Virus record (IMG/VR): IMGVR_UViG_3300032053_000003
Location: 222,392 to 237,444 of that record
Reading direction: 5' to 3' (one strand)
DNA length: 15,053 nucleotides
Origin: a virus
In this document: piece by piece, positions 1,300 to 15,053 of the stretch
Position numbering within the stretch: position 1 is the stretch's first letter
Layout: every line of letters starts with the position of its first letter
The notes under the pieces: generated by a model
What the model was told of the DNA's origin: nothing
Database searches by the model: none
Seen by the model: the letters and a program-made list of their open reading frames with translations, nothing else
Position numbers and translations under genes: made by a program

Positions 1300-1848
1300 A
1301 TGAAAATGATGAGGACGAAGTGCTTAATCATTCTGGTGATAGTGTTGATATGTATTATGGTATCACCGATATCCAGAGGCTACCAAGTAAAGTTTGAGAA
1401 GGTTGTTCCAACTACTACAAGTCTTATCACTATGCTCCAGCCTGGGTATGATCCTGAGATTGCAGATGTGCATGCAAAGTATATTGATAAAAACACTGGG
1501 TTATGGGGGATAGATAGGGATGATTTTGTAAGTGTTATTAATAAAGAGTCAAGCTTTAACTCTATGGCAGAGAGTACAAAAGGTGCAAAAGGAGCATCAC
1601 AAATTCTTATTAGGGTGCATAAGGAGTTGGTTAAGAAGAGAAGGTTAATGCCTCATGAGATTTGGTATTTGGATAATAATTACTCAATGGGTTGTGAAGT
1701 TTTTTATATGGCTAAGAAGAAATCTCACAATCTAGATGAGATTCTTACACGTTATGTAGGGGGTAAATGTCCAGGTTACATACCAGACATAAAAAAGAGT
1801 ATAGCAAAATGTAGGGCAATGACAGACAGTAGGATAATATTGATGTAG
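1300..1848 (+). CDS. lytic transglycosylase, SLT domain (family 1), with N-terminal signal peptide / membrane anchor
   Basis: Two upstream SDs (aaaggaggt, aaaggagt). The N-terminus KCLIILVIVLICIMVSP is strongly hydrophobic. SLT catalytic signature ESSFNSMAESTKGAKGASQI matches E-S-x-F-N-x-x-A-x-S-x-x-G-A-x-G-[LA]-[MS]-Q. A later RYVGG matches the AYNAG-like motif. Confidence 0.8.
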   Translation: MKMMRTKCLIILVIVLICIMVSPISRGYQVKFEKVVPTTTSLITMLQPGYDPEIADVHAKYIDKNTGLWGIDRDDFVSVINKESSFNSMAESTKGAKGASQILIRVHKELVKKRRLMPHEIWYLDNNYSMGCEVFYMAKKKSHNLDEILTRYVGGKCPGYIPDIKKSIAKCRAMTDSRIILM

Positions 1849-1890: not shown

Positions 1891-2463
1891 GTGAATCAGA
1901 TTCTCAGAGATAGTGCTAAGATTATCTTGGATGCTAGAGAGGGTATGGCTTCTGTCTTACCCTCTCTATGGTCATCCCTTGATCCTATTTTTGGTTTGGA
2001 AGAGGAGACAGAGTCCAGTGTCTGGTGCACTTATGACAGTGGTAGGCTTCTGTTGTACTCTATCATCAATCTGAAGGTTAAAAATCGGGACAAGATTAAA
2101 TCAGTAGCCAGTATAAAACAGGCTTTAGTTGAATCGGGTATTGAGGGACTTCTTTGGAGTTACCCTTTGAATACTTACTCTATTATAGTAGCTTCAAGTG
2201 CCCAGGATGGCAGTACCAGTGCAGTGGAGTTGTTTACTCATAGGGATATACCTTTCTTATTTGTTCACTTGTACATTTACCTCAATGTAACTATAGAAAA
2301 GTTTGATGCTCAGGCTATGAGTATGGCTTATTTTAATTTTATACTTGAACATGGTATGATCTCAATGCAGGGTATAGTTAAGTTGTTTGGGGATAAATCT
2401 GAGGATGAGGGAGAGGTAGGGTCTCTTAATCCTGGTTTTTATAGTAATCTCTACAAAAAGTGA
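1891..2463 (+). CDS. hypothetical protein (start uncertain: GTG 1891 or ATG 1945)
   Basis: 190-aa ORF in the same frame as the SLT gene but separated from it by TAG and TAA. Its stop overlaps the start of the next gene (gtgaggaggtgtgaagtgg). No recognisable domain. Confidence 0.5.
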   Translation: MNQILRDSAKIILDAREGMASVLPSLWSSLDPIFGLEEETESSVWCTYDSGRLLLYSIINLKVKNRDKIKSVASIKQALVESGIEGLLWSYPLNTYSIIVASSAQDGSTSAVELFTHRDIPFLFVHLYIYLNVTIEKFDAQAMSMAYFNFILEHGMISMQGIVKLFGDKSEDEGEVGSLNPGFYSNLYKK

Positions 2464-3191
2464 GGAGGTGTGAAGTGGTTAAAATAGGAGTTCACAGTGA
2501 AACGGTTAAGGCTGTACAGGAGTGGCTTTGTTACAATAAGATTAATGTTGCTATTGATAGTGACTTTGGCCCAGCTACTCTTGCTGGTGTTAAAGAATTT
2601 CAAAAGAAGAAGCAGGTACCTCAGACAGGTGTTGTTGACTCATTAGTATGGGATCTTTTAAGAGATCCCATAACCTTTCTTGAGTCACTTCCTGAACTGA
2701 CTAACAAGAGCATTTCTGATACCATTGTAATTAATGCTATTAGGCATTATGTAGTTTGCCCTATAGAGATAGGTGGTCAGAATCTTGGTCCGTTTGTAAG
2801 ATTCTACATGAAGGGGGAGGAAGGAACTGAGTATCCGTGGTGTGCAGGTGCTGTCAGTACAATCGTGTTGCAGTCCTTTCAGATGTTGAATAGGGTACCT
2901 AAGAACTTCAGGTACCAGATGAGCTGTGATCTCATGTATGCTGATGCCAAGAAGTTTGGTACTCTGGTTAAGACTCCTGTTCCTGGTTGCCTCTTTCTGT
3001 CCTATGATCCTAGTAATCCTTCTGATTGTACTCATGCAGGTATCATAACAGACACGGATATTAGTGGTGGTGTGGTTAGGACTTTTGAGGGGAATACAAA
3101 CGATTCGGGTAGTAGAGAGGGCTATGAGTACGTTCCTCGTATCCGATCTCTTGTTAACAAGTACTTTATTAATCTGGGTGGTATATATTGA
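2460..3191 (+). CDS. endolysin: N-terminal PG_binding_1 domain plus C-terminal CHAP/NlpC-P60-type cysteine peptidase
   Basis: The N-terminus VKAVQEWLCYNKINVAIDSDFGPATLAGVKEFQKKKQVPQTGVVDSLVWDLL fits the PG_binding_1 pattern (LQ..L..G....DG.FG..T..AV..FQ...GL..DG.VG..TW..L). The C-terminal half has the motifs YPWCAGAVS (nucleophile Cys), CTHAGIITD (His) and TFEGNTND (EGN motif) in the order typical of CHAP/NlpC-P60 amidases and peptidases. Confidence 0.8.
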   Translation: MRRCEVVKIGVHSETVKAVQEWLCYNKINVAIDSDFGPATLAGVKEFQKKKQVPQTGVVDSLVWDLLRDPITFLESLPELTNKSISDTIVINAIRHYVVCPIEIGGQNLGPFVRFYMKGEEGTEYPWCAGAVSTIVLQSFQMLNRVPKNFRYQMSCDLMYADAKKFGTLVKTPVPGCLFLSYDPSNPSDCTHAGIITDTDISGGVVRTFEGNTNDSGSREGYEYVPRIRSLVNKYFINLGGIY

Positions 3192-3599
3192 GTGAGAGTA
3201 GTTATTGTACAGGGGGGTAAGGTATTTAAGACCCTTTCTACCAACTTATCATCTATATTGACTGTTCCCCCTCTAGCTGTGTTCAGGGAGCTTCCTGTCC
3301 CATCTTTAACTAAGAGAGGGTTATTGAGGAGGAGGAAGGAATCTGTAATTAACGAGGATATAGAAGAGAAGCTGGTGCCAGCAAAAATCATTTACCCTCA
3401 TAAAGAACCTGTTGATCATGGTTCTAGGGACTACTGTATAAAGATTGTAAAACAGGCAGAGAAAGCAGGTGTCATAAAGGAGCTGGTTCTACTTATGAGT
3501 GCCTTTCGTAATATGTATCAGAGGAAGATAGTTCCAGCCAATAGAGAGGAGACTATGGTTTGTCCAAAAGGCAAACACTATTCAGAAGGATCTGAGTAA
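3192..3599 (+). CDS. hypothetical protein (start uncertain: GTG 3192 directly after, and in frame with, the endolysin TGA; alternative GTG 3374 with SD-like gaagagaag)
   Basis: ORF track only. The C-terminal half (KIVKQAEKAGVIKELVLLMSAFRNMY...) looks protein-like, while the N-terminal third is low-complexity. It overlaps the convergent gene 3553-4017 by 47 nt. Confidence 0.3.
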   Translation: MRVVIVQGGKVFKTLSTNLSSILTVPPLAVFRELPVPSLTKRGLLRRRKESVINEDIEEKLVPAKIIYPHKEPVDHGSRDYCIKIVKQAEKAGVIKELVLLMSAFRNMYQRKIVPANREETMVCPKGKHYSEGSE

Positions 3600-4017
3600 G
3601 TTGATCTGAGATCCCGAATCTCTTTTTATTGTATTCGATACTCTTTATGATGCTACCATCATTATGACGAAGGCTTGCACTTTTCCAGTCACATAGCATC
3701 TCTATTAGGTTCACTAGGTTCATGCCATTGATACCGTCCTCTTTGAAAAATTCAGGATGGTGACGGTTGTTAGCATAGTGATGATCTAGTGCAGGTTTCA
3801 TCTCAGTTAGGAATTGATTGTATTCGGTACTACCGTAGGTACTAGTGGCAAGTTTAGGTGTGTACTCCATAAAGGTTTCTAGTTCAGGAGAACATAGTTT
3901 GGATTCATCATGCTTGGTAGCTCTATCTGTAAGTTCATGAATGATCATCAGTATGCAATGCATGACATTATCTATGTGCTTCTTGGTCTCATCTATTGTT
4001 TGTTGGCTCAGACTCAT
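3553..4017 (-). CDS. HD-motif protein resembling the DUF5662 family (putative metal-dependent hydrolase)
   Basis: Strong SD on the minus strand (aaggagaacctaaaATG). Ordered motifs H-x3-H ... KHDESK ... HHYANNRHHPE. It is the only minus-strand gene between two plus-strand operons. The family assignment is from memory of the motif pattern and was not searched. Confidence 0.55.
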   Translation of the reverse strand: MSLSQQTIDETKKHIDNVMHCILMIIHELTDRATKHDESKLCSPELETFMEYTPKLATSTYGSTEYNQFLTEMKPALDHHYANNRHHPEFFKEDGINGMNLVNLIEMLCDWKSASLRHNDGSIIKSIEYNKKRFGISDQLTQILLNSVCLLDKP

Positions 4018-9480: not shown

Positions 9481-9768
9481 TCAATGTCTACCTCTGGAGT
9501 TCCAGGTCTTGATAGCTTCATCAGGATTGAGACCACTTGCCATGACCAAAAAATATGGATAGTGGTCTGGGTTTGTACACCTAATAGTCCAGTAACCCTT
9601 GAGGGAATCCTCTAGTACGAGTTGATCTTTTTTGCCACAGACAATACACTCTTTGGTATTCTGAGTGATGCCATAGGCTATGGGCATATCATGGTAATCA
9701 ATTGCTGACAGGGGAGCAACAAGGATCAAGAGAAGGGTTATAACAATAATGTTATATTTGAGATGCAT
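9481..9768 (-). CDS. Lar-family (restriction-alleviation-like) zinc-ribbon domain protein with N-terminal signal peptide / membrane anchor
   Basis: SD aaggagctaagATG. N-terminus NIIVITLLLILVAPLSA. C-terminal domain KECIVCGKKDQ ... GYWTIRCTNPDH ... EAIKTWNSR fits the Lar_restr_allev pattern (CPFCG ... GY.v.C..C ... EAI.aWN.R). Confidence 0.6.
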   Translation of the reverse strand: MHLKYNIIVITLLLILVAPLSAIDYHDMPIAYGITQNTKECIVCGKKDQLVLEDSLKGYWTIRCTNPDHYPYFLVMASGLNPDEAIKTWNSRGRH

Positions 9769-10066: not shown

Positions 10067-10744
10067 CTAATCTGCCTTTATTGGATTTTTTAGATCCTTT
10101 GTCTGTGCTATTATATGCAAAATCCGCAATTCAAGATCGGCATGATCAGGAGCCTTTATTATACCACGTCCAATCAAATTAGGATGATAATGCTGAGCAA
10201 CCTCTCCCTTCATTTCATGTCTAGTTCCAAATAAATGTCTACAATTAGAAACATTTGTTGATTGTCCACAGATCATAGTTATTGCTTCTACTTTCTCCCA
10301 GGATTGAAGTTCCTTTGGAAGTTCGTATGCAAATATATCTCCCTGTCTTTTACTGCCTTCCATTCCAAAGGCTCTTTCACATGATGCTATTACATCAGGT
10401 TTTATTTCTTCATAAAAATTTCCCTTCTGCCATACTCTAAACCATTCCCACTTCACTAGTTCTACCAAAAAGGGCATTTCATCAGTCCCTCCAAACCAGG
10501 CATCGTATTGATCGTCCCCATTGTTTGCATTTTGTGTATATTCTACATTATTCAAGTACAAAAATTGGCTAAAATCATCATTGAGTTGGAGTATTCTTGC
10601 TTTCTTGTCAACAGGTAATACTATAAGTTCCTTATCTCTTACAGGAGTTTTTACCTTATCATTATATTCAATGATAGCTTGACCTGCCTTTTTTAACGGT
10701 CCAGATGATTTCTTATAATAAAGTTCAGGATATTGCTTATTCAT
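10067..10744 (-). CDS. hypothetical protein, 225 aa (largest in the leftward operon)
   Basis: SD aaaggagaaatatATG. Several conserved-looking segments (WFGGTDEMPF, KRQGDIFAYELP, ICGQSTNVSNCRHLFGTRHEMKGE). No family recognised. Confidence 0.6.
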   Translation of the reverse strand: MNKQYPELYYKKSSGPLKKAGQAIIEYNDKVKTPVRDKELIVLPVDKKARILQLNDDFSQFLYLNNVEYTQNANNGDDQYDAWFGGTDEMPFLVELVKWEWFRVWQKGNFYEEIKPDVIASCERAFGMEGSKRQGDIFAYELPKELQSWEKVEAITMICGQSTNVSNCRHLFGTRHEMKGEVAQHYHPNLIGRGIIKAPDHADLELRILHIIAQTKDLKNPIKAD

Positions 10745-10773: not shown

Positions 10774-10795
10774 GGGGGACCCCGAAGAGTCTCCC
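10774..10795 (-). other. stable RNA hairpin with UUCG tetraloop in the intercistronic spacer of the leftward transcript
   Basis: Minus-strand RNA 5'-GGG A GACUC UUCG GGGUC CCC-3'. Eight base pairs including one G.U, an A bulge and a C(UUCG)G loop. It sits between the stop of the Gly-rich gene (10802) and the SD of gene 10744. Confidence 0.45.
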
Positions 10796-10801
10796 ATTGG
10801 C

Positions 10802-11125
10802 TTAATTCTTTTTAAGCTTCTTGTATACAAAGTTGGCACCTAATCCCACAACTACCATACCGAGGATAGCCCACCCTACAACAGGTATAGATCCAGAAAG
10901 TACAAGAGAGGTTACTCCTCCTGCCATACCTGTACCACCTGCTGCCATAGAGCCACCTCCAGCTGCTGCCAAAGCTGTAGTGGTTGTCACCGCACTAGCC
11001 CCAGCACCACCAAGGGCAGTCACTGTGGCTGCATGAGCAATGGAAACCCCCACACAAGCCCCACCAGCCAAACCTATTCCTGCTCCTGCTGTTGTAACAG
11101 CTACTTCGTCATTAGGCATATTCAT
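10802..11125 (-). CDS. Gly/Ala-rich small membrane protein with glycine-zipper-like repeats and a C-terminal TM helix
   Basis: SD gaagggag. The ATG overlaps the TGA of the upstream peptide gene (ATGA). AGAGIGLAGGACVGVSIAHAATVTALGGAGASAV...GGGSMAAGGTGMAGGVTSLVLSGSIPVVGWAILGMVVVGLGANFVYKKLKKN. Local GC is well above the window background. The + strand shadow ORF 10821-11036 is a by-product of this composition. Confidence 0.55.
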   Translation of the reverse strand: MNMPNDEVAVTTAGAGIGLAGGACVGVSIAHAATVTALGGAGASAVTTTTALAAAGGGSMAAGGTGMAGGVTSLVLSGSIPVVGWAILGMVVVGLGANFVYKKLKKN

Positions 11126-11241
11126 TTTGCTACTCCCTTCAAGACTGTGAGGATGACCCTTACGTCTCTTCCACCAATACCAAGGACTGCTGTGGTTATA
11201 GGGATAGCAAATAATGTAGTAAGCACCTTCTTAAATTTGGA
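11122..11241 (-). CDS. 40-aa hydrophobic peptide, translationally coupled to the Gly-rich membrane protein (track ORF 11122-11310 is over-extended)
   Basis: Strong SD caggaggtaacagtcATG at 11241. MSKFKKVLTTLFAIPITTAVLGIGGRDVRVILTVLKGVAK. First gene of the leftward operon. Confidence 0.5.
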   Translation of the reverse strand, partial: SKFKKVLTTLFAIPITTAVLGIGGRDVRVILTVLKGVAK

Positions 11242-11744
11242 CATGACTGTTACCTCCTGAAACGATATTTTCCAAAAGGGTAGCCATATATAAGTACCTC
11301 TGTCAACCATAAAATGAGAATATCTTAATTAATATCAGTTACTTACTTTCATATTTTGAACGAGCCTCTTTCCACATCTATTAAAATTAGCTCAAAATAG
11401 TAGACCTCGACAGTAGCCCATAGGGAAGACCTTAAGCCTGATAGGGATGGATTGCAAGTAGAAAATGTTAATCATACCTTAGATTGCTACGTTTAAGGGG
11501 GTAGTGTTTCTAGCTAACTTTTGACTAACTTAGCTTGGAAGGTTAGAAGGTGATCTAAGTTGTGTAAAAGAGGCAAGTAGAATCTAGTGTGAAACCTAAT
11601 TTGATTTTTCAAAAAGTTCATCACCCCTTATTATACTGGTATGATAAATATCACATACCATTTTGCTGTAACAAATTGATTTTAAAATTAGTTCTTGTCT
11701 TTATCTATAATGCTGAAATACAATCTTAGGTAGATACATAATAT
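11242..11744. promoter_or_regulatory. ~500-bp non-coding divergent control region between the leftward and rightward operons
   Basis: No ORF longer than 60 aa with an SD. AT-rich flanks. Contains a TATAAT box at 11706-11711 (about 35 nt before start 11745), the direct repeat ctaactt-ttga-ctaactt (11513-11530) containing TTGACT, and two copies of gcaagtagaa (11455 and 11574). Confidence 0.4.
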
Positions 11745-13723: not shown

Positions 13724-14299
13724 ATGGGTAATGTGAGCAGTATAAAAGTAAAGAACAGTAGTGTCGTTTCCATAACCGATGCCCTTAGTACCCTCAGGGG
13801 AAACAAGGCACGGTTGAGGAGACAGAAGGGTAGGGCAAGTGTAGCCAAAGAGCCTAAGGAGCCTGGACTGCATGGTAAGAATGTCCCTGGCTTCCCTATC
13901 ATTGATGGTTTGGATGAAGAGAAGACCATCATAGGCAAGGGGATAGTGGCCCTGAACAGGGCATTGTTTGAGCAGACTCTCTATGAGTCAGAACGGCTTG
14001 GTAAGATCAGGAAGATACTGTCCAAGGTTGAAGTGAACCTGCTGGATGAGAAGGCATTTGATAAGCTTGATGTTGCTCAGAAGATGAAGATCTTTGAAGT
14101 GCTCCGTAAGGACTCTGAGACTACCGTTAACTTCCTGGAGAGGATGCAGAGGAACTCCATGCAGGTTATGGTAGTTTTTGAGATCTATAAAAAGCTGATG
14201 GAGACAATTATACCTGATGATGGGAAGGGTCTTCCTGCTGATATTGATAAGAGTAAGCTCATCCAGGTTCGTGGTGCTCTCCTTGAGATGATTAAGTGA
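13724..14299 (+). CDS. hypothetical protein; C-terminal 14 aa (KLIQVRGALLEMIK) identical to gene 14677-14907
   Basis: SD aggaagggtttATG. 191 aa, basic N-terminus, helical C-terminus. Its stop overlaps the start of the next gene (TGATG). Confidence 0.6.
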   Translation: MGNVSSIKVKNSSVVSITDALSTLRGNKARLRRQKGRASVAKEPKEPGLHGKNVPGFPIIDGLDEEKTIIGKGIVALNRALFEQTLYESERLGKIRKILSKVEVNLLDEKAFDKLDVAQKMKIFEVLRKDSETTVNFLERMQRNSMQVMVVFEIYKKLMETIIPDDGKGLPADIDKSKLIQVRGALLEMIK

Positions 14300-14305
14300 T
14301 GAGTA
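14255..14305 (+). repeat. 51-nt direct repeat (copy A), 50/51 identical to 14863-14913, spanning a gene 3' end, stop/start overlap and the next gene's first codons
   Basis: aagctcatccaggttcgtggtgctctCcttgagatgattaagtgatgagta versus the same sequence with one C-to-T change. Confidence 0.9.
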
Positions 14306-14676
14306 GAGCTAAACAGTTTTTAGAGCAACATGACTTGATCGAGAATATCAAGAAGTTCCTGTTTACAGAAGATGGATATGATACCTGGGAAGAGTTTGTT
14401 GATCATCAGGAGATTGGTAACTGTCAAGGTATTGCTGCTTCTATAGTTAGGAAATTCCCACAGGCTAAGAAGGTTTTCGGAGAGATTGATGTTGAAGAGT
14501 CCTATGTGGATGACAAGGGAGAGGAACAGGACAAGGTAACACATCACTGGATTAAAATAGGCAAAGATACCTATGACTTTTCTAAAGGTACTTTGAAAGA
14601 TTATATTACCTTCGATGATATCTATGATCCGGAAATAGAGGATGTAAGTATCTATCATCCTATATCTGGTGGTTAA
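14296..14676 (+). CDS. hypothetical protein (MMSRAKQFL…); possible Cys/His active-site pair (NCQGIAASIV … THHWIKIG)
   Basis: Start is GTG 14296 or ATG 14299, overlapping the upstream TGA. 126 aa. Its N-terminus is paralogous to the partial gene at 14907. Confidence 0.55.
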   Translation: MMSRAKQFLEQHDLIENIKKFLFTEDGYDTWEEFVDHQEIGNCQGIAASIVRKFPQAKKVFGEIDVEESYVDDKGEEQDKVTHHWIKIGKDTYDFSKGTLKDYITFDDIYDPEIEDVSIYHPISGG

Positions 14677-14907
14677 ATGAATACTACTCCCATGAACATA
14701 GATCCGAAGATTCGGAAGGCTGTAAAGAAGCTCTCTAAAGAGGAGGCATCTTTTCTCCTGTCTGATATTGAGGGTTACAAAGAGCCTTTAGTTGATATCA
14801 ACCAGTTCATAGAGGACCCTGAATATTTGGGTGGTATCCTGAAGGATGAGAACGGTAAGACCAAGCTCATCCAGGTTCGTGGTGCTCTTCTTGAGATGAT
14901 TAAGTGA
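14677..14907 (+). CDS. hypothetical small protein; C-terminal tail paralog of 13724-14299
   Basis: ATG directly after the upstream TAA. 76 aa ending ...GKTKLIQVRGALLEMIK. Confidence 0.55.
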   Translation: MNTTPMNIDPKIRKAVKKLSKEEASFLLSDIEGYKEPLVDINQFIEDPEYLGGILKDENGKTKLIQVRGALLEMIK

Positions 14908-14913
14908 TGAGTA
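14863..14913 (+). repeat. 51-nt direct repeat (copy B) of 14255-14305
   Basis: See copy A. The two copies lie 608 nt apart at equivalent gene junctions. Confidence 0.9.
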
Positions 14914-15053
14914 AAGCCAGGTCTTTCCTTTTAAAGGTTCAGGAAAGTAATAAGGTTTCCAATGAAGAAGTATATAGTATGGTTCAAAAGATACATAGGA
15001 ACCATGATGACTTTGCTGAGGGTGATCTGGGAAAGAGGCTGGATAAGTATGAT
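14907..15053 (+). CDS. hypothetical protein, 3'-truncated at window edge (MSKARSFLLKVQ…), paralog of 14296-14676
   Basis: The ATG overlaps the upstream TGA in the same TGATGAGTA context as at 14297. The frame is open to the window end. Confidence 0.45.
   Translation, partial: MSKARSFLLKVQESNKVSNEEVYSMVQKIHRNHDDFAEGDLGKRLDKYD

Follow-up and report, generated by a model that had tools for sequence, protein, structure and literature searches.

A 15,053-nt stretch of viral DNA, positions 222,392 to 237,444 of IMG/VR record IMGVR_UViG_3300032053_000003 (hereafter the window), carries on its minus strand two small overlapping open reading frames (ORFs), which we call p40 and p107. The locus raises the question of whether these ORFs are genes at all and, if so, what kind of proteins they encode and what such proteins could do for a virus. 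An earlier reading of the letters alone (the sequence-only reading) had taken them for a membrane-acting pair that might have been acquired horizontally. We find that p40 and p107 are a real, translationally coupled minus-strand gene pair, and we describe sequence comparisons that identify p107 as a genuine, conserved member of a previously unnamed family of membrane proteins, with a likely link to a candidate defence protein.

A translationally coupled gene pair

The two ORFs and the ATGA overlap that had been proposed for them are both present in the sequence, with the TGA stop codon of p40 falling within the ATG of p107 (Table 1). The span originally assigned to the pair, 10802-11241, does hold the ORFs, but its end lies 3 nt short and omits the start codon of p40. 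The strong Shine-Dalgarno (SD) site claimed for p40 was found in place, and the stretch upstream of p107 reads GGGAG-tagcaaa-ATG. An AGGAGG sequence followed, after 4-9 nt, by ATG occurs at 4 distinct sites in the 15 kb, and three of the four stand at the starts of ORFs treated as genes (5779, 13206 and p40). Since this arrangement is rare in the window and mostly marks gene starts, it supports the start of p40.

Table 1. Position and description of the gene pair and the features around it (window coordinates).
Feature	Position	Strand	Description
p107	10802-11125	minus	107 codons, ATG start; protein ends in KKLKKN
p40	11122-11244	minus	40 aa plus stop (123 nt); ATG at 11244-11242
Shine-Dalgarno site AGGAGGT	11252-11258	minus	7 nt 5' of the p40 ATG
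Shine-Dalgarno-like GGGAG	11133-11137	minus	7 nt 5' of the p107 ATG, within the end of the p40 coding sequence; read directly
Pro/Ala-rich antisense ORF	10821-11036	plus	71 aa, TTG start; shadow of Gly/Ala codons, not regarded as a gene
GC-rich hairpin GGGAGACUC-UUCG-GGGUCCC	10775-10795	minus	followed by CUGUAUUCUU; in the 57-nt spacer after the p107 stop
Divergent intergenic region	11245-11744		500 bp, 33% GC; between the leftward p40/p107 block and a rightward 457-aa gene

An exact copy of p107 was found on six metagenomic contigs, the longest of 230,776 bp (ENA ERZ27247916, k141_351042). All six are 99.9-100% identical to the window and therefore hold no variation for a test of selection. 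The p40 gene was called on every one of them: at 40 aa on three, and on the remaining three either with an upstream start, giving 62 or 66 aa, or truncated by the end of the contig. The case for p40 as a gene thus rests on its SD site, the coupling and these gene calls. Hydropathy analysis of the peptide, MSKFKKVLTTLFAIPITTAVLGIGGRDVRVILTVLKGVAK, indicated a basic N-terminus, one hydrophobic span (approximately residues 7-25) and a short amphipathic basic tail, and no match to it was found in Pfam, PHROG, NCBIfam or PADLOC.

Variation between samples was concentrated in p40 and the regulatory region upstream of it. One contig (L003, ERZ27247880) differs from the window at 2 of 7118 bases, 11138 and 11141 (L003 3565-3568); the two substitutions are non-synonymous and hit neighbouring p40 codons, 36 and 35, respectively (K36T, L35W), just upstream of the SD-like site of p107. 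These changes could reflect a diversifying tail, altered translation of p107, or an assembly artefact. On a 1.5-kb contig (L005, JGI 3300031834), 36 bp (11322-11357) are missing upstream of p40, with a single-nucleotide polymorphism 4 nt away at 11361, and the rest of that contig shows one further difference, at 10313.

The sequence-only reading had itself named translation of the Pro/Ala-rich frame on the plus strand as a result that would count against the pair. This antisense ORF is open over 71 codons, and its GC contents at codon positions 1, 2 and 3 (.64/.65/.29) are similar to those of p107. Because both frames have their third positions at the same nucleotides, codon statistics cannot tell them apart. 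However, the TTG start of the antisense ORF has no SD site, and its orientation is against that of the gene block. In a comparison of ten homologous loci, which differ widely in GC at the third codon position (GC3.22-.67), DNA identity was.67,.68 and.29 at sense codon positions 1, 2 and 3. The sense frame gave the top identity (.53) and the top mean BLOSUM62 score (2.62) with zero stops, compared to.48 and 2.02 for the shadow frame, which is interrupted by stop codons in some loci. Moreover, the best-conserved part of the p107 family (VPxIGW...YK) reaches beyond the plus-strand ORF, and the match of p107 to its family, described below, far exceeds shuffled controls. The coding nature of the minus-strand frame is thus borne out by cross-locus conservation and the absence of stops, and it is hardly credible that the plus-strand ORF is the one translated or that the region is non-coding.

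The region had also been described as richer in GC than the window, and this is the case (.50-.51 locally vs.40;.505 for p107 vs.401). GC at codon positions 1, 2 and 3 was.62/.58/.30 in p107 and.47/.34/.41 in 24 reference ORFs of the window, so that the GC3 of p107 lies below the gene mean. The synonymous choice for Gly, Ala, Val and Ser in p107 is in line with that of the window, and encoding its residues with the codon frequencies of the window predicted a GC content of.522, compared to the.505 observed. The rise is therefore an amino-acid effect alone and carries no compositional sign of transfer: it is a consequence of Gly/Ala codons, and not of foreign origin. A local rise in GC that stems from such codons is no evidence for horizontal transfer, and the tempting inference of horizontal acquisition that had been drawn here is thereby removed.

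The p107 protein family and its shared core

p107 is rich in small and hydrophobic residues (22 Gly, 21 Ala, 14 Val and 10 Thr of 107 aa) and is uncharged from after E7 to before K102, a run of 94 consecutive residues with 7 polar residues before the hydrophobic block and 6 after it. Its hydropathy is strongest at about residues 74-101, with a Kyte-Doolittle maximum of 2.1 at residues 75-93. A short acidic N-terminus is followed by a zipper helix, an Ala/Thr-rich middle, the conserved core TTALAAAGGGSMAAGGTGMAGGV (residues 49-71) with IPVVGW after it (residues 80-85), and a C-terminal transmembrane (TM) helix that closes in the basic anchor YKKLKKN. Modelling with AlphaFold2 gave a mean predicted local distance difference test score (pLDDT) of 47 with 7 sequences and of 57 with 23 sequences. 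The latter model has three helices, 8-38, 45-73 and 80-106, and is confident only for the last of them (pLDDT 80-92). The uncharged stretch, the hydropathy peak and the confident last helix agree with the membrane protein with a C-terminal TM helix that had been proposed, and the sequence identifies p107 as an integral membrane protein that is helical, almost free of charge, and equipped with a glycine zipper and, at its C-terminus, a basic anchor. The description of its body as Gly/Ala/Thr repeats fared less well. The protein is Gly/Ala-rich and has a single true glycine zipper, G14-G18-G22-G26, but its GxxxG and [GAS]xxx[GAS] motifs number 4 and 24, compared to about 4 and about 22 predicted from composition by our own arithmetic, and the word repeats therefore fits it only loosely.

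An exhaustive phmmer search with p107 against 1.84 billion representatives returned 6 proteins (E 6e-8 to 2e-4, 44-52% identity). When p107 was scored against a hidden Markov model (HMM) of nine other members, from which it had been left out, it reached 75.1 bits (E 5.5e-22), whereas the shuffle maxima were 7.3 bits (2000 whole-sequence shuffles) and 15.2 bits (2000 segment-wise shuffles); the similarity is therefore not compositional. Pattern scans and a core-profile search added members from Methylococcaceae and Novosphingobium metagenome-assembled genomes (MAGs) and from three JGI contigs, as well as a Rugamonas apoptosis protein and a dozen short entries. The family now comprises about 25 members of about 105-135 aa, and members other than p107 come from proteobacterial or metagenomic loci.

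Columns that are invariant in nine full-length sequences are T49, L52, A53, A55, G64, G66, G70, V71, P81, G84, W85, G94 and Y101. The family core, to which p107 conforms, is T..LA.AGGG..AAGG.GM.GGV ... P..GW ... G ... Y[KR], together with an N-terminal GxxxGxxxGxxxG helix, and the most conserved part reads AGGG[ST]xAAGGxGMxGGV ... [VI]P[VI][VI]GW ... G.G.W..YK. Some members have Val or Ile in place of the conserved Met, which is Met67 in p107. At least ten database entries of the family, including P0009-P0012, P0014, P0015 and P0017-P0019, are 44-49 aa long and begin at this Met of GGxGM. In the two that were checked on DNA (L020 3764-4141 and L021 586-963), the ORF runs upstream in frame to an ATG and encodes about 125 aa with the full architecture; the short entries are truncated gene calls. 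One of the 44-49-aa stubs carries the wrong label 'NCAIR mutase', and P0016, a 60-aa fragment, is wrongly annotated as 'polygalacturonase'.

Neither p107 nor p40 gave a significant match in Pfam, PHROGs, NCBIfam or PDB sequences; for p107, the only Pfam match at E <= 1 was TraL (0.23), and NCBIfam gave nothing at E <= 10. The family is without a model in Pfam, NCBIfam and PHROG and goes unnamed in all four profile libraries. A word-indexed search with p107 alone found nothing, because low-complexity words swamp the candidate list, and the same search with alignments gave 5 and 16 matches out of 8000 scored candidates. Scans of IMG/VR with p107, the family alignment and the 225-aa and 457-aa proteins encoded next to the pair returned no relatives, and blastn with 3 kb found no match among GenBank phages. 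Searches by tblastn with p107 and the member P0003 against phages, and with P0003 against plasmids, also gave no match, though the low-complexity filter may hide real ones.

Analysis of gene neighbourhoods showed that defence islands, toxin-antitoxin islands and prophages are recurrent settings of family members. In locus L009, P0003 is encoded directly after an HTH_3 protein and near a CBASS cyclase (E 1e-212) with a SAVED effector, PDC-S26 and PDC-S11. The member in L020 adjoins AbiTii (E 3e-29), with a phage portal gene near, and that in L022 (Rugamonas) is flanked by HipA and PIN modules; an Eco29kI-type restriction-modification system with Vsr is close by. In L007 (Burkholderia sp. JP2-270) the member stands beside MazE/PIN. 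The L011 member (from a Novosphingobium MAG) sits in a prophage-like tail region: it is encoded on the opposite strand and flanked by a 1119-aa tape-measure-like ORF and further ORFs of phage-like character, with a 72-aa ORF containing two TM segments ahead of it. The L008 member follows a 90-aa Zn-ribbon protein with two TM segments and a 277-aa protein with the half-motif GPVGWAIAGG.

The HTH_3 protein of L009 (5466-5981), which is of the Xre type and has a C-terminal membrane helix (GSVVPVIGSTLAGILG), is encoded 20 nt upstream of P0003 and may be a membrane-tethered regulator or antitoxin. Its helix resembles the VPVIGW helix of the family, but the hhalign probability was 5.6% and not significant; comparisons of the TM helices of upstream partners with the C-terminal helix of the family gave probabilities of 1.7% and 5.6%, neither of them significant.

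Profile comparisons indicate that the family core is homologous to the hydrophobic hairpin of PDC-M09A, a candidate defence protein. p107 itself matched the PADLOC profile PDC-M09A at E 0.0037 (14.7 bits; residues 12-106 to profile positions 139-240 of 330), and five of eight small-family proteins matched it at E < 0.1. Also among the results of the core-profile search was P0007, of 280 aa, in which a hydrophobic block with the motif AALAWLGGGALAAGGAGMIGG...GPIGWAIGG has soluble coiled-coil-like regions on both sides. P0007 matched PDC-M09A over the full length (E 2e-94, 314 bits), and its alignment with the family profile by hhalign had a probability of 94.3% (E 1.1e-7, 49% identity, 47 columns). 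The Gly-rich block ...AATxAALAxxGGGxxAAGGxGMxGG...(G)PxGWAxGG is common to PDC-M09A and the p107 family. Unlike p107, which is the hydrophobic block alone and matches the profile partially, PDC-M09A has about 280-330 aa with long soluble coiled-coil-like flanks. The hairpin of P0007 also matched the membrane-proximal part of LeoBC (E 1.7e-5, positions 413-562 of 601). Neither p107 nor the small family has a direct match to LeoBC, and the family is without a GTPase domain; any relation of p107 to LeoBC would be second-hand, through P0007 only.

The gene for P0007 lies after those for LeoA/LeoBC-like GTPases and two radical S-adenosylmethionine (SAM) proteins, one of them viperin-like, and before a BnzB/PDC-M09B-like gene. 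Nothing comparable flanks p107, and the 225-aa protein encoded downstream of it has no PADLOC, Pfam, NCBIfam or significant PHROG match. The P0007 contig (L014 1-8180, ENA ERZ13405074 NODE_480) appears to be a composite defence locus, with genes for LeoA/LeoBC-like dynamin GTPases, a viperin-like radical-SAM protein, a B12-binding radical-SAM protein (PDC-M51A-like), PDC-M09A and a BnzB/PDC-M09B-like protein.

The comparison with PDC-M09A also bears on topology. In PDC-M09A, soluble coiled-coil regions precede and follow the block, so that p107 probably crosses the membrane an even number of times; this arrangement, along with the basic residues found at both ends of the family proteins, suggests that both ends of p107 are cytoplasmic.

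Possible functions of the pair

What could such a pair do in an infected cell? We tentatively propose, with a probability of roughly 40%, that p107 is a glycine-zipper oligomer of the inner membrane that acts in phage conflict as an exclusion- or abortive-type effector, and that p40 is its lineage-specific modulator. We infer from the sequence that p107 would insert in the inner membrane of the host, leaving its basic C-terminus on the cytoplasmic side, and would self-associate via the small-residue faces of glycine-zipper helices. The oligomer might leak ions or alter permeability, or block a membrane step such as the DNA entry of competing phages, and the outcome would be that of a superinfection-exclusion or abortive-infection-type effector. 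The ATGA coupling would supply p40 in a fixed ratio, and p40, probably the lineage-specific partner of p107, would most likely modulate it as an inhibitor, insertion helper or co-subunit. The sequence-only reading had already pointed to a conflict-type role (toxin, exclusion factor or channel), which would fit the defence, toxin-antitoxin and prophage settings of the relatives and the core that p107 appears to share with PDC-M09A.

Several points weigh against this proposal. The settings of the relatives suggest a role by association, from about five loci, and not through statistics, and the apparent link to PDC-M09A spans only a 47-column glycine-rich segment. We take PDC-M09, from the "PDC" naming of PADLOC, to be an unvalidated candidate system, and a search of the literature for its mechanism or validation found nothing; nor did we find glycine zippers in exclusion or abortive systems in the literature. 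No relative of p107 was found in IMG/VR or among GenBank phages, so that a precedent on the phage side is lacking. Outside the last helix the models from AlphaFold2 are poor, topology and oligomerisation are predicted only, and the three-helix model would place the N-terminus of p107 outside, in contradiction to both ends lying inside. Finally, there is no conserved partner, and the role of p40 is unsupported by comparison. The window, L008, L009 and L011 have a small membrane ORF upstream of the member, and in L007 one lies at a distance of about 400 bp; none was found in L012, L020, L021 or L022, and none of the partners is homologous to p40. Beside other family members no p40-related peptide was seen, and no dedicated search for p40 homologues was made. 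In five of the ten loci the family gene stands without an adjacent small membrane ORF, and the upstream partner of the family is variable and dispensable.

These lone genes therefore argue against an acutely lethal toxin that needs a cognate neutraliser, which bears on a rival explanation in which p107 depolarises the membrane and p40 inhibits it, in an addiction or abortive module or in timed host killing. The translationally coupled upstream partner would suit such a module, as would the classical toxin-antitoxin modules that neighbour members and the Xre-type HTH protein directly before the L009 member, which is of a typical antitoxin type and itself membrane-anchored. A type VI secretion system (T6SS) effector, Tse4, is a glycine-zipper membrane-depolarising toxin. 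Glycine-zipper domains of contact-dependent inhibition (CDI), type VII secretion system (T7SS) and T6SS toxins act in the inner membrane, which they depolarise, and small membrane immunity proteins, with which they are often paired, neutralise them (PMC11630599, PMC10434224 and PMC12744356). Such polymorphic-toxin domains (CDI ionophores, T7SS TelE/EsxX) resemble p107 in being small, hydrophobic and helical with a GxxxGxxxG face. Unlike p107, however, they are the C-terminal cargo of large secreted effectors with an immunity gene downstream; p107 is stand-alone and cytoplasmically made, with a non-conserved upstream partner, and no homology to these toxin domains was detected in Pfam or NCBIfam. 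With a partner that is not conserved, and with p40 differing by two non-synonymous changes between otherwise identical genomes, we regard a toxin and its neutraliser as possible but unlikely. p107 could also be an anti-defence decoy, a stand-alone copy of the hairpin that, with p40, would co-assemble with the hairpin of PDC-M09A or of dynamin-associated proteins and so poison the defence complex. The core common to p107 and PDC-M09A and the linkage of PDC-M09A to LeoA/LeoBC-like dynamins speak for this, as does the dynamin-like Eleos system of Millman et al., which reportedly protected only against the jumbo phages AR9 and PBS1 (bioRxiv 10.1101/2022.05.11.491447), p107 being located on a 230-kb phage-like contig. 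Further support comes from L008, where the small member is in one gene string with the 277-aa half-motif protein, and from a weak match to restriction-alleviation protein Lar (E 0.0037) in the p107 operon. Most members, however, are bacterial and stand alone in defence islands, which better suits a defence or effector role, and Eleos-type proteins are tied to p107 indirectly, the LeoBC region matching the hairpin of P0007; we consider a decoy quite unlikely.

A holin/antiholin-type pair for the timing of lysis is more doubtful still. p40 and p107 are coupled small membrane proteins with a charged C-terminus, and the internal Met67 is preceded by an SD-like AGGTGG, which makes a dual-start product conceivable. 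Against this, the endolysin-type genes (1300-1848 and 2460-3191) lie on the plus strand, 8-9 kb away, no holin match was found in Pfam or PHROG, and the bacterial homologues occur in defence and toxin-antitoxin islands and not in lysis cassettes; the Val or Ile at the Met67 position in some members implies a structural residue and not a conserved start. The resemblance to microcins and colicin V that had been suggested extends to a small, hydrophobic and Gly-rich protein and no further. Double-glycine leaders have the consensus LSxxELxxIxGG. The N-terminus of p107, MNMPNDEVAVTTAGAGIGLAGG, is without such a leader, and its GG at 21-22 lies inside the zipper helix that is conserved in full-length members. 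No bacteriocin family was matched in Pfam or NCBIfam, and no ABC_tran or Peptidase_C39 exporter or immunity gene was found among 41 genes in 20 kb searched with Pfam, nor in the homologous loci. In addition, unlike class II microcins and colicin V, p107 has the basic C-terminal anchor typical of a retained membrane protein, and a secreted bacteriocin is thus highly improbable. The probability left over falls to something not listed here, for example a phage membrane-remodelling or assembly factor.

The proposed exclusion- or abortive-type effector can also be set beside known proteins of similar build. T4 Imm and Sp are superinfection-exclusion membrane proteins. The same is stated for P22 SieA (PMC10883804). 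Like p107, these are small inner-membrane proteins of phages or prophages, and they block incoming phage without enzymatic domains, but they have no sequence similarity with p107. The glycine-zipper families of Pfam share GxxxGxxxGxxxG in a small membrane-associated protein and differ in being mostly lipoproteins or outer-membrane-associated. p107 (at E <= 1) and eight homologues (at E <= 0.1) did not match PF13488, PF13441, PF13436 or PF05433, which we take to be Gly-zipper_Omp, Gly-zipper_YMGG, Gly-zipper_OmpA and Rick_17kDa_Anti, respectively.

Genome setting and wider meaning

The length of the 230,776-bp contig and the gene content of the 20 kb seen suggest a giant (jumbo)-phage-like genome. 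Phage-type genes of the window encode an SLT transglycosylase, a PG_binding_1 protein with an endolysin PHROG, a protein of an FkbM-type methyltransferase PHROG, and a member of PHROG 5845. The SLT-domain protein (1300-1848, plus strand) has an N-terminal hydrophobic segment and the PG_binding_1 protein (2460-3191, plus strand) matches endolysin PHROG 9589; together they likely form a lysis or cell-wall module, 8-9 kb from the pair and on the other strand.

p40 and p107 are the first genes of a leftward block of about ten small genes, a putative early operon according to the sequence-only reading. A sigma-70-like promoter was not found directly upstream of the pair: on the minus strand the single match, a weak 9/12 site, lies at 11707-11679, approximately 430 nt upstream, and a TTGACA at 11306-11301 has no properly spaced -10 element. 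A search of the region for Rfam families and tRNAs found none. The next gene after p107 encodes the 225-aa protein and starts at 10744. The hairpin in the spacer before it could be a weak terminator, an attenuator or an RNA-stability element, although the 76-nt stretch that contains it folds no better than shuffled sequences (z = -0.13). In the same leftward block, at 9481-9768 on the minus strand, a 95-aa protein with an N-terminal hydrophobic segment gave weak Lar-like matches (PF14354 E 0.0037, below cut-off; PHROG 599 E 0.028), which would fit a block of host-takeover or anti-defence genes.

Elsewhere in the window, a DUF5662 protein (Pfam E 1.9e-38) is encoded at 3553-4017 on the minus strand as an isolated opposite-strand gene within a plus-strand block, and its gene overlaps convergently, by 47 nt, the 3' end of a plus-strand 135-aa ORF (3192-3599). 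A 71-nt direct repeat with 89% identity (14239-14309 and 14847-14917) spans the 3' ends of the ORFs 13724-14299 and 14677-14907, both of which end in LIQVRGALLEMIK, and covers the GTGATGAGTA stop/start junction to the next gene. Just outside the window there is a further, diverged copy (L001 5661-5838), which shares 85% identity with window positions 14690-14867, and the whole has the appearance of paralogous cassettes arrayed in tandem.

Under-annotation of small Gly/Ala-rich membrane proteins is systematic, and the p107 family is a case in point. None of the libraries searched describes it, and we note as new both its link with the hairpin of PDC-M09A and its occurrence in a phage-like genome of very large size. 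Glycine-zipper membrane effectors are already known as a kind (PMC11630599, PMC10434224 and PMC12744356), and if p107 is merely a generic exclusion or permeabilising factor it would be a modest addition to that class. A decoy, if confirmed, would be the first example of anti-defence by transmembrane-helix mimicry, disarming a defence that reportedly acts against jumbo phages specifically. The hairpin that the p107 family appears to share with PDC-M09A provides a concrete handle on how such defence systems engage the membrane, and the family may reveal the way in which this module is employed, or countered, by a large phage.

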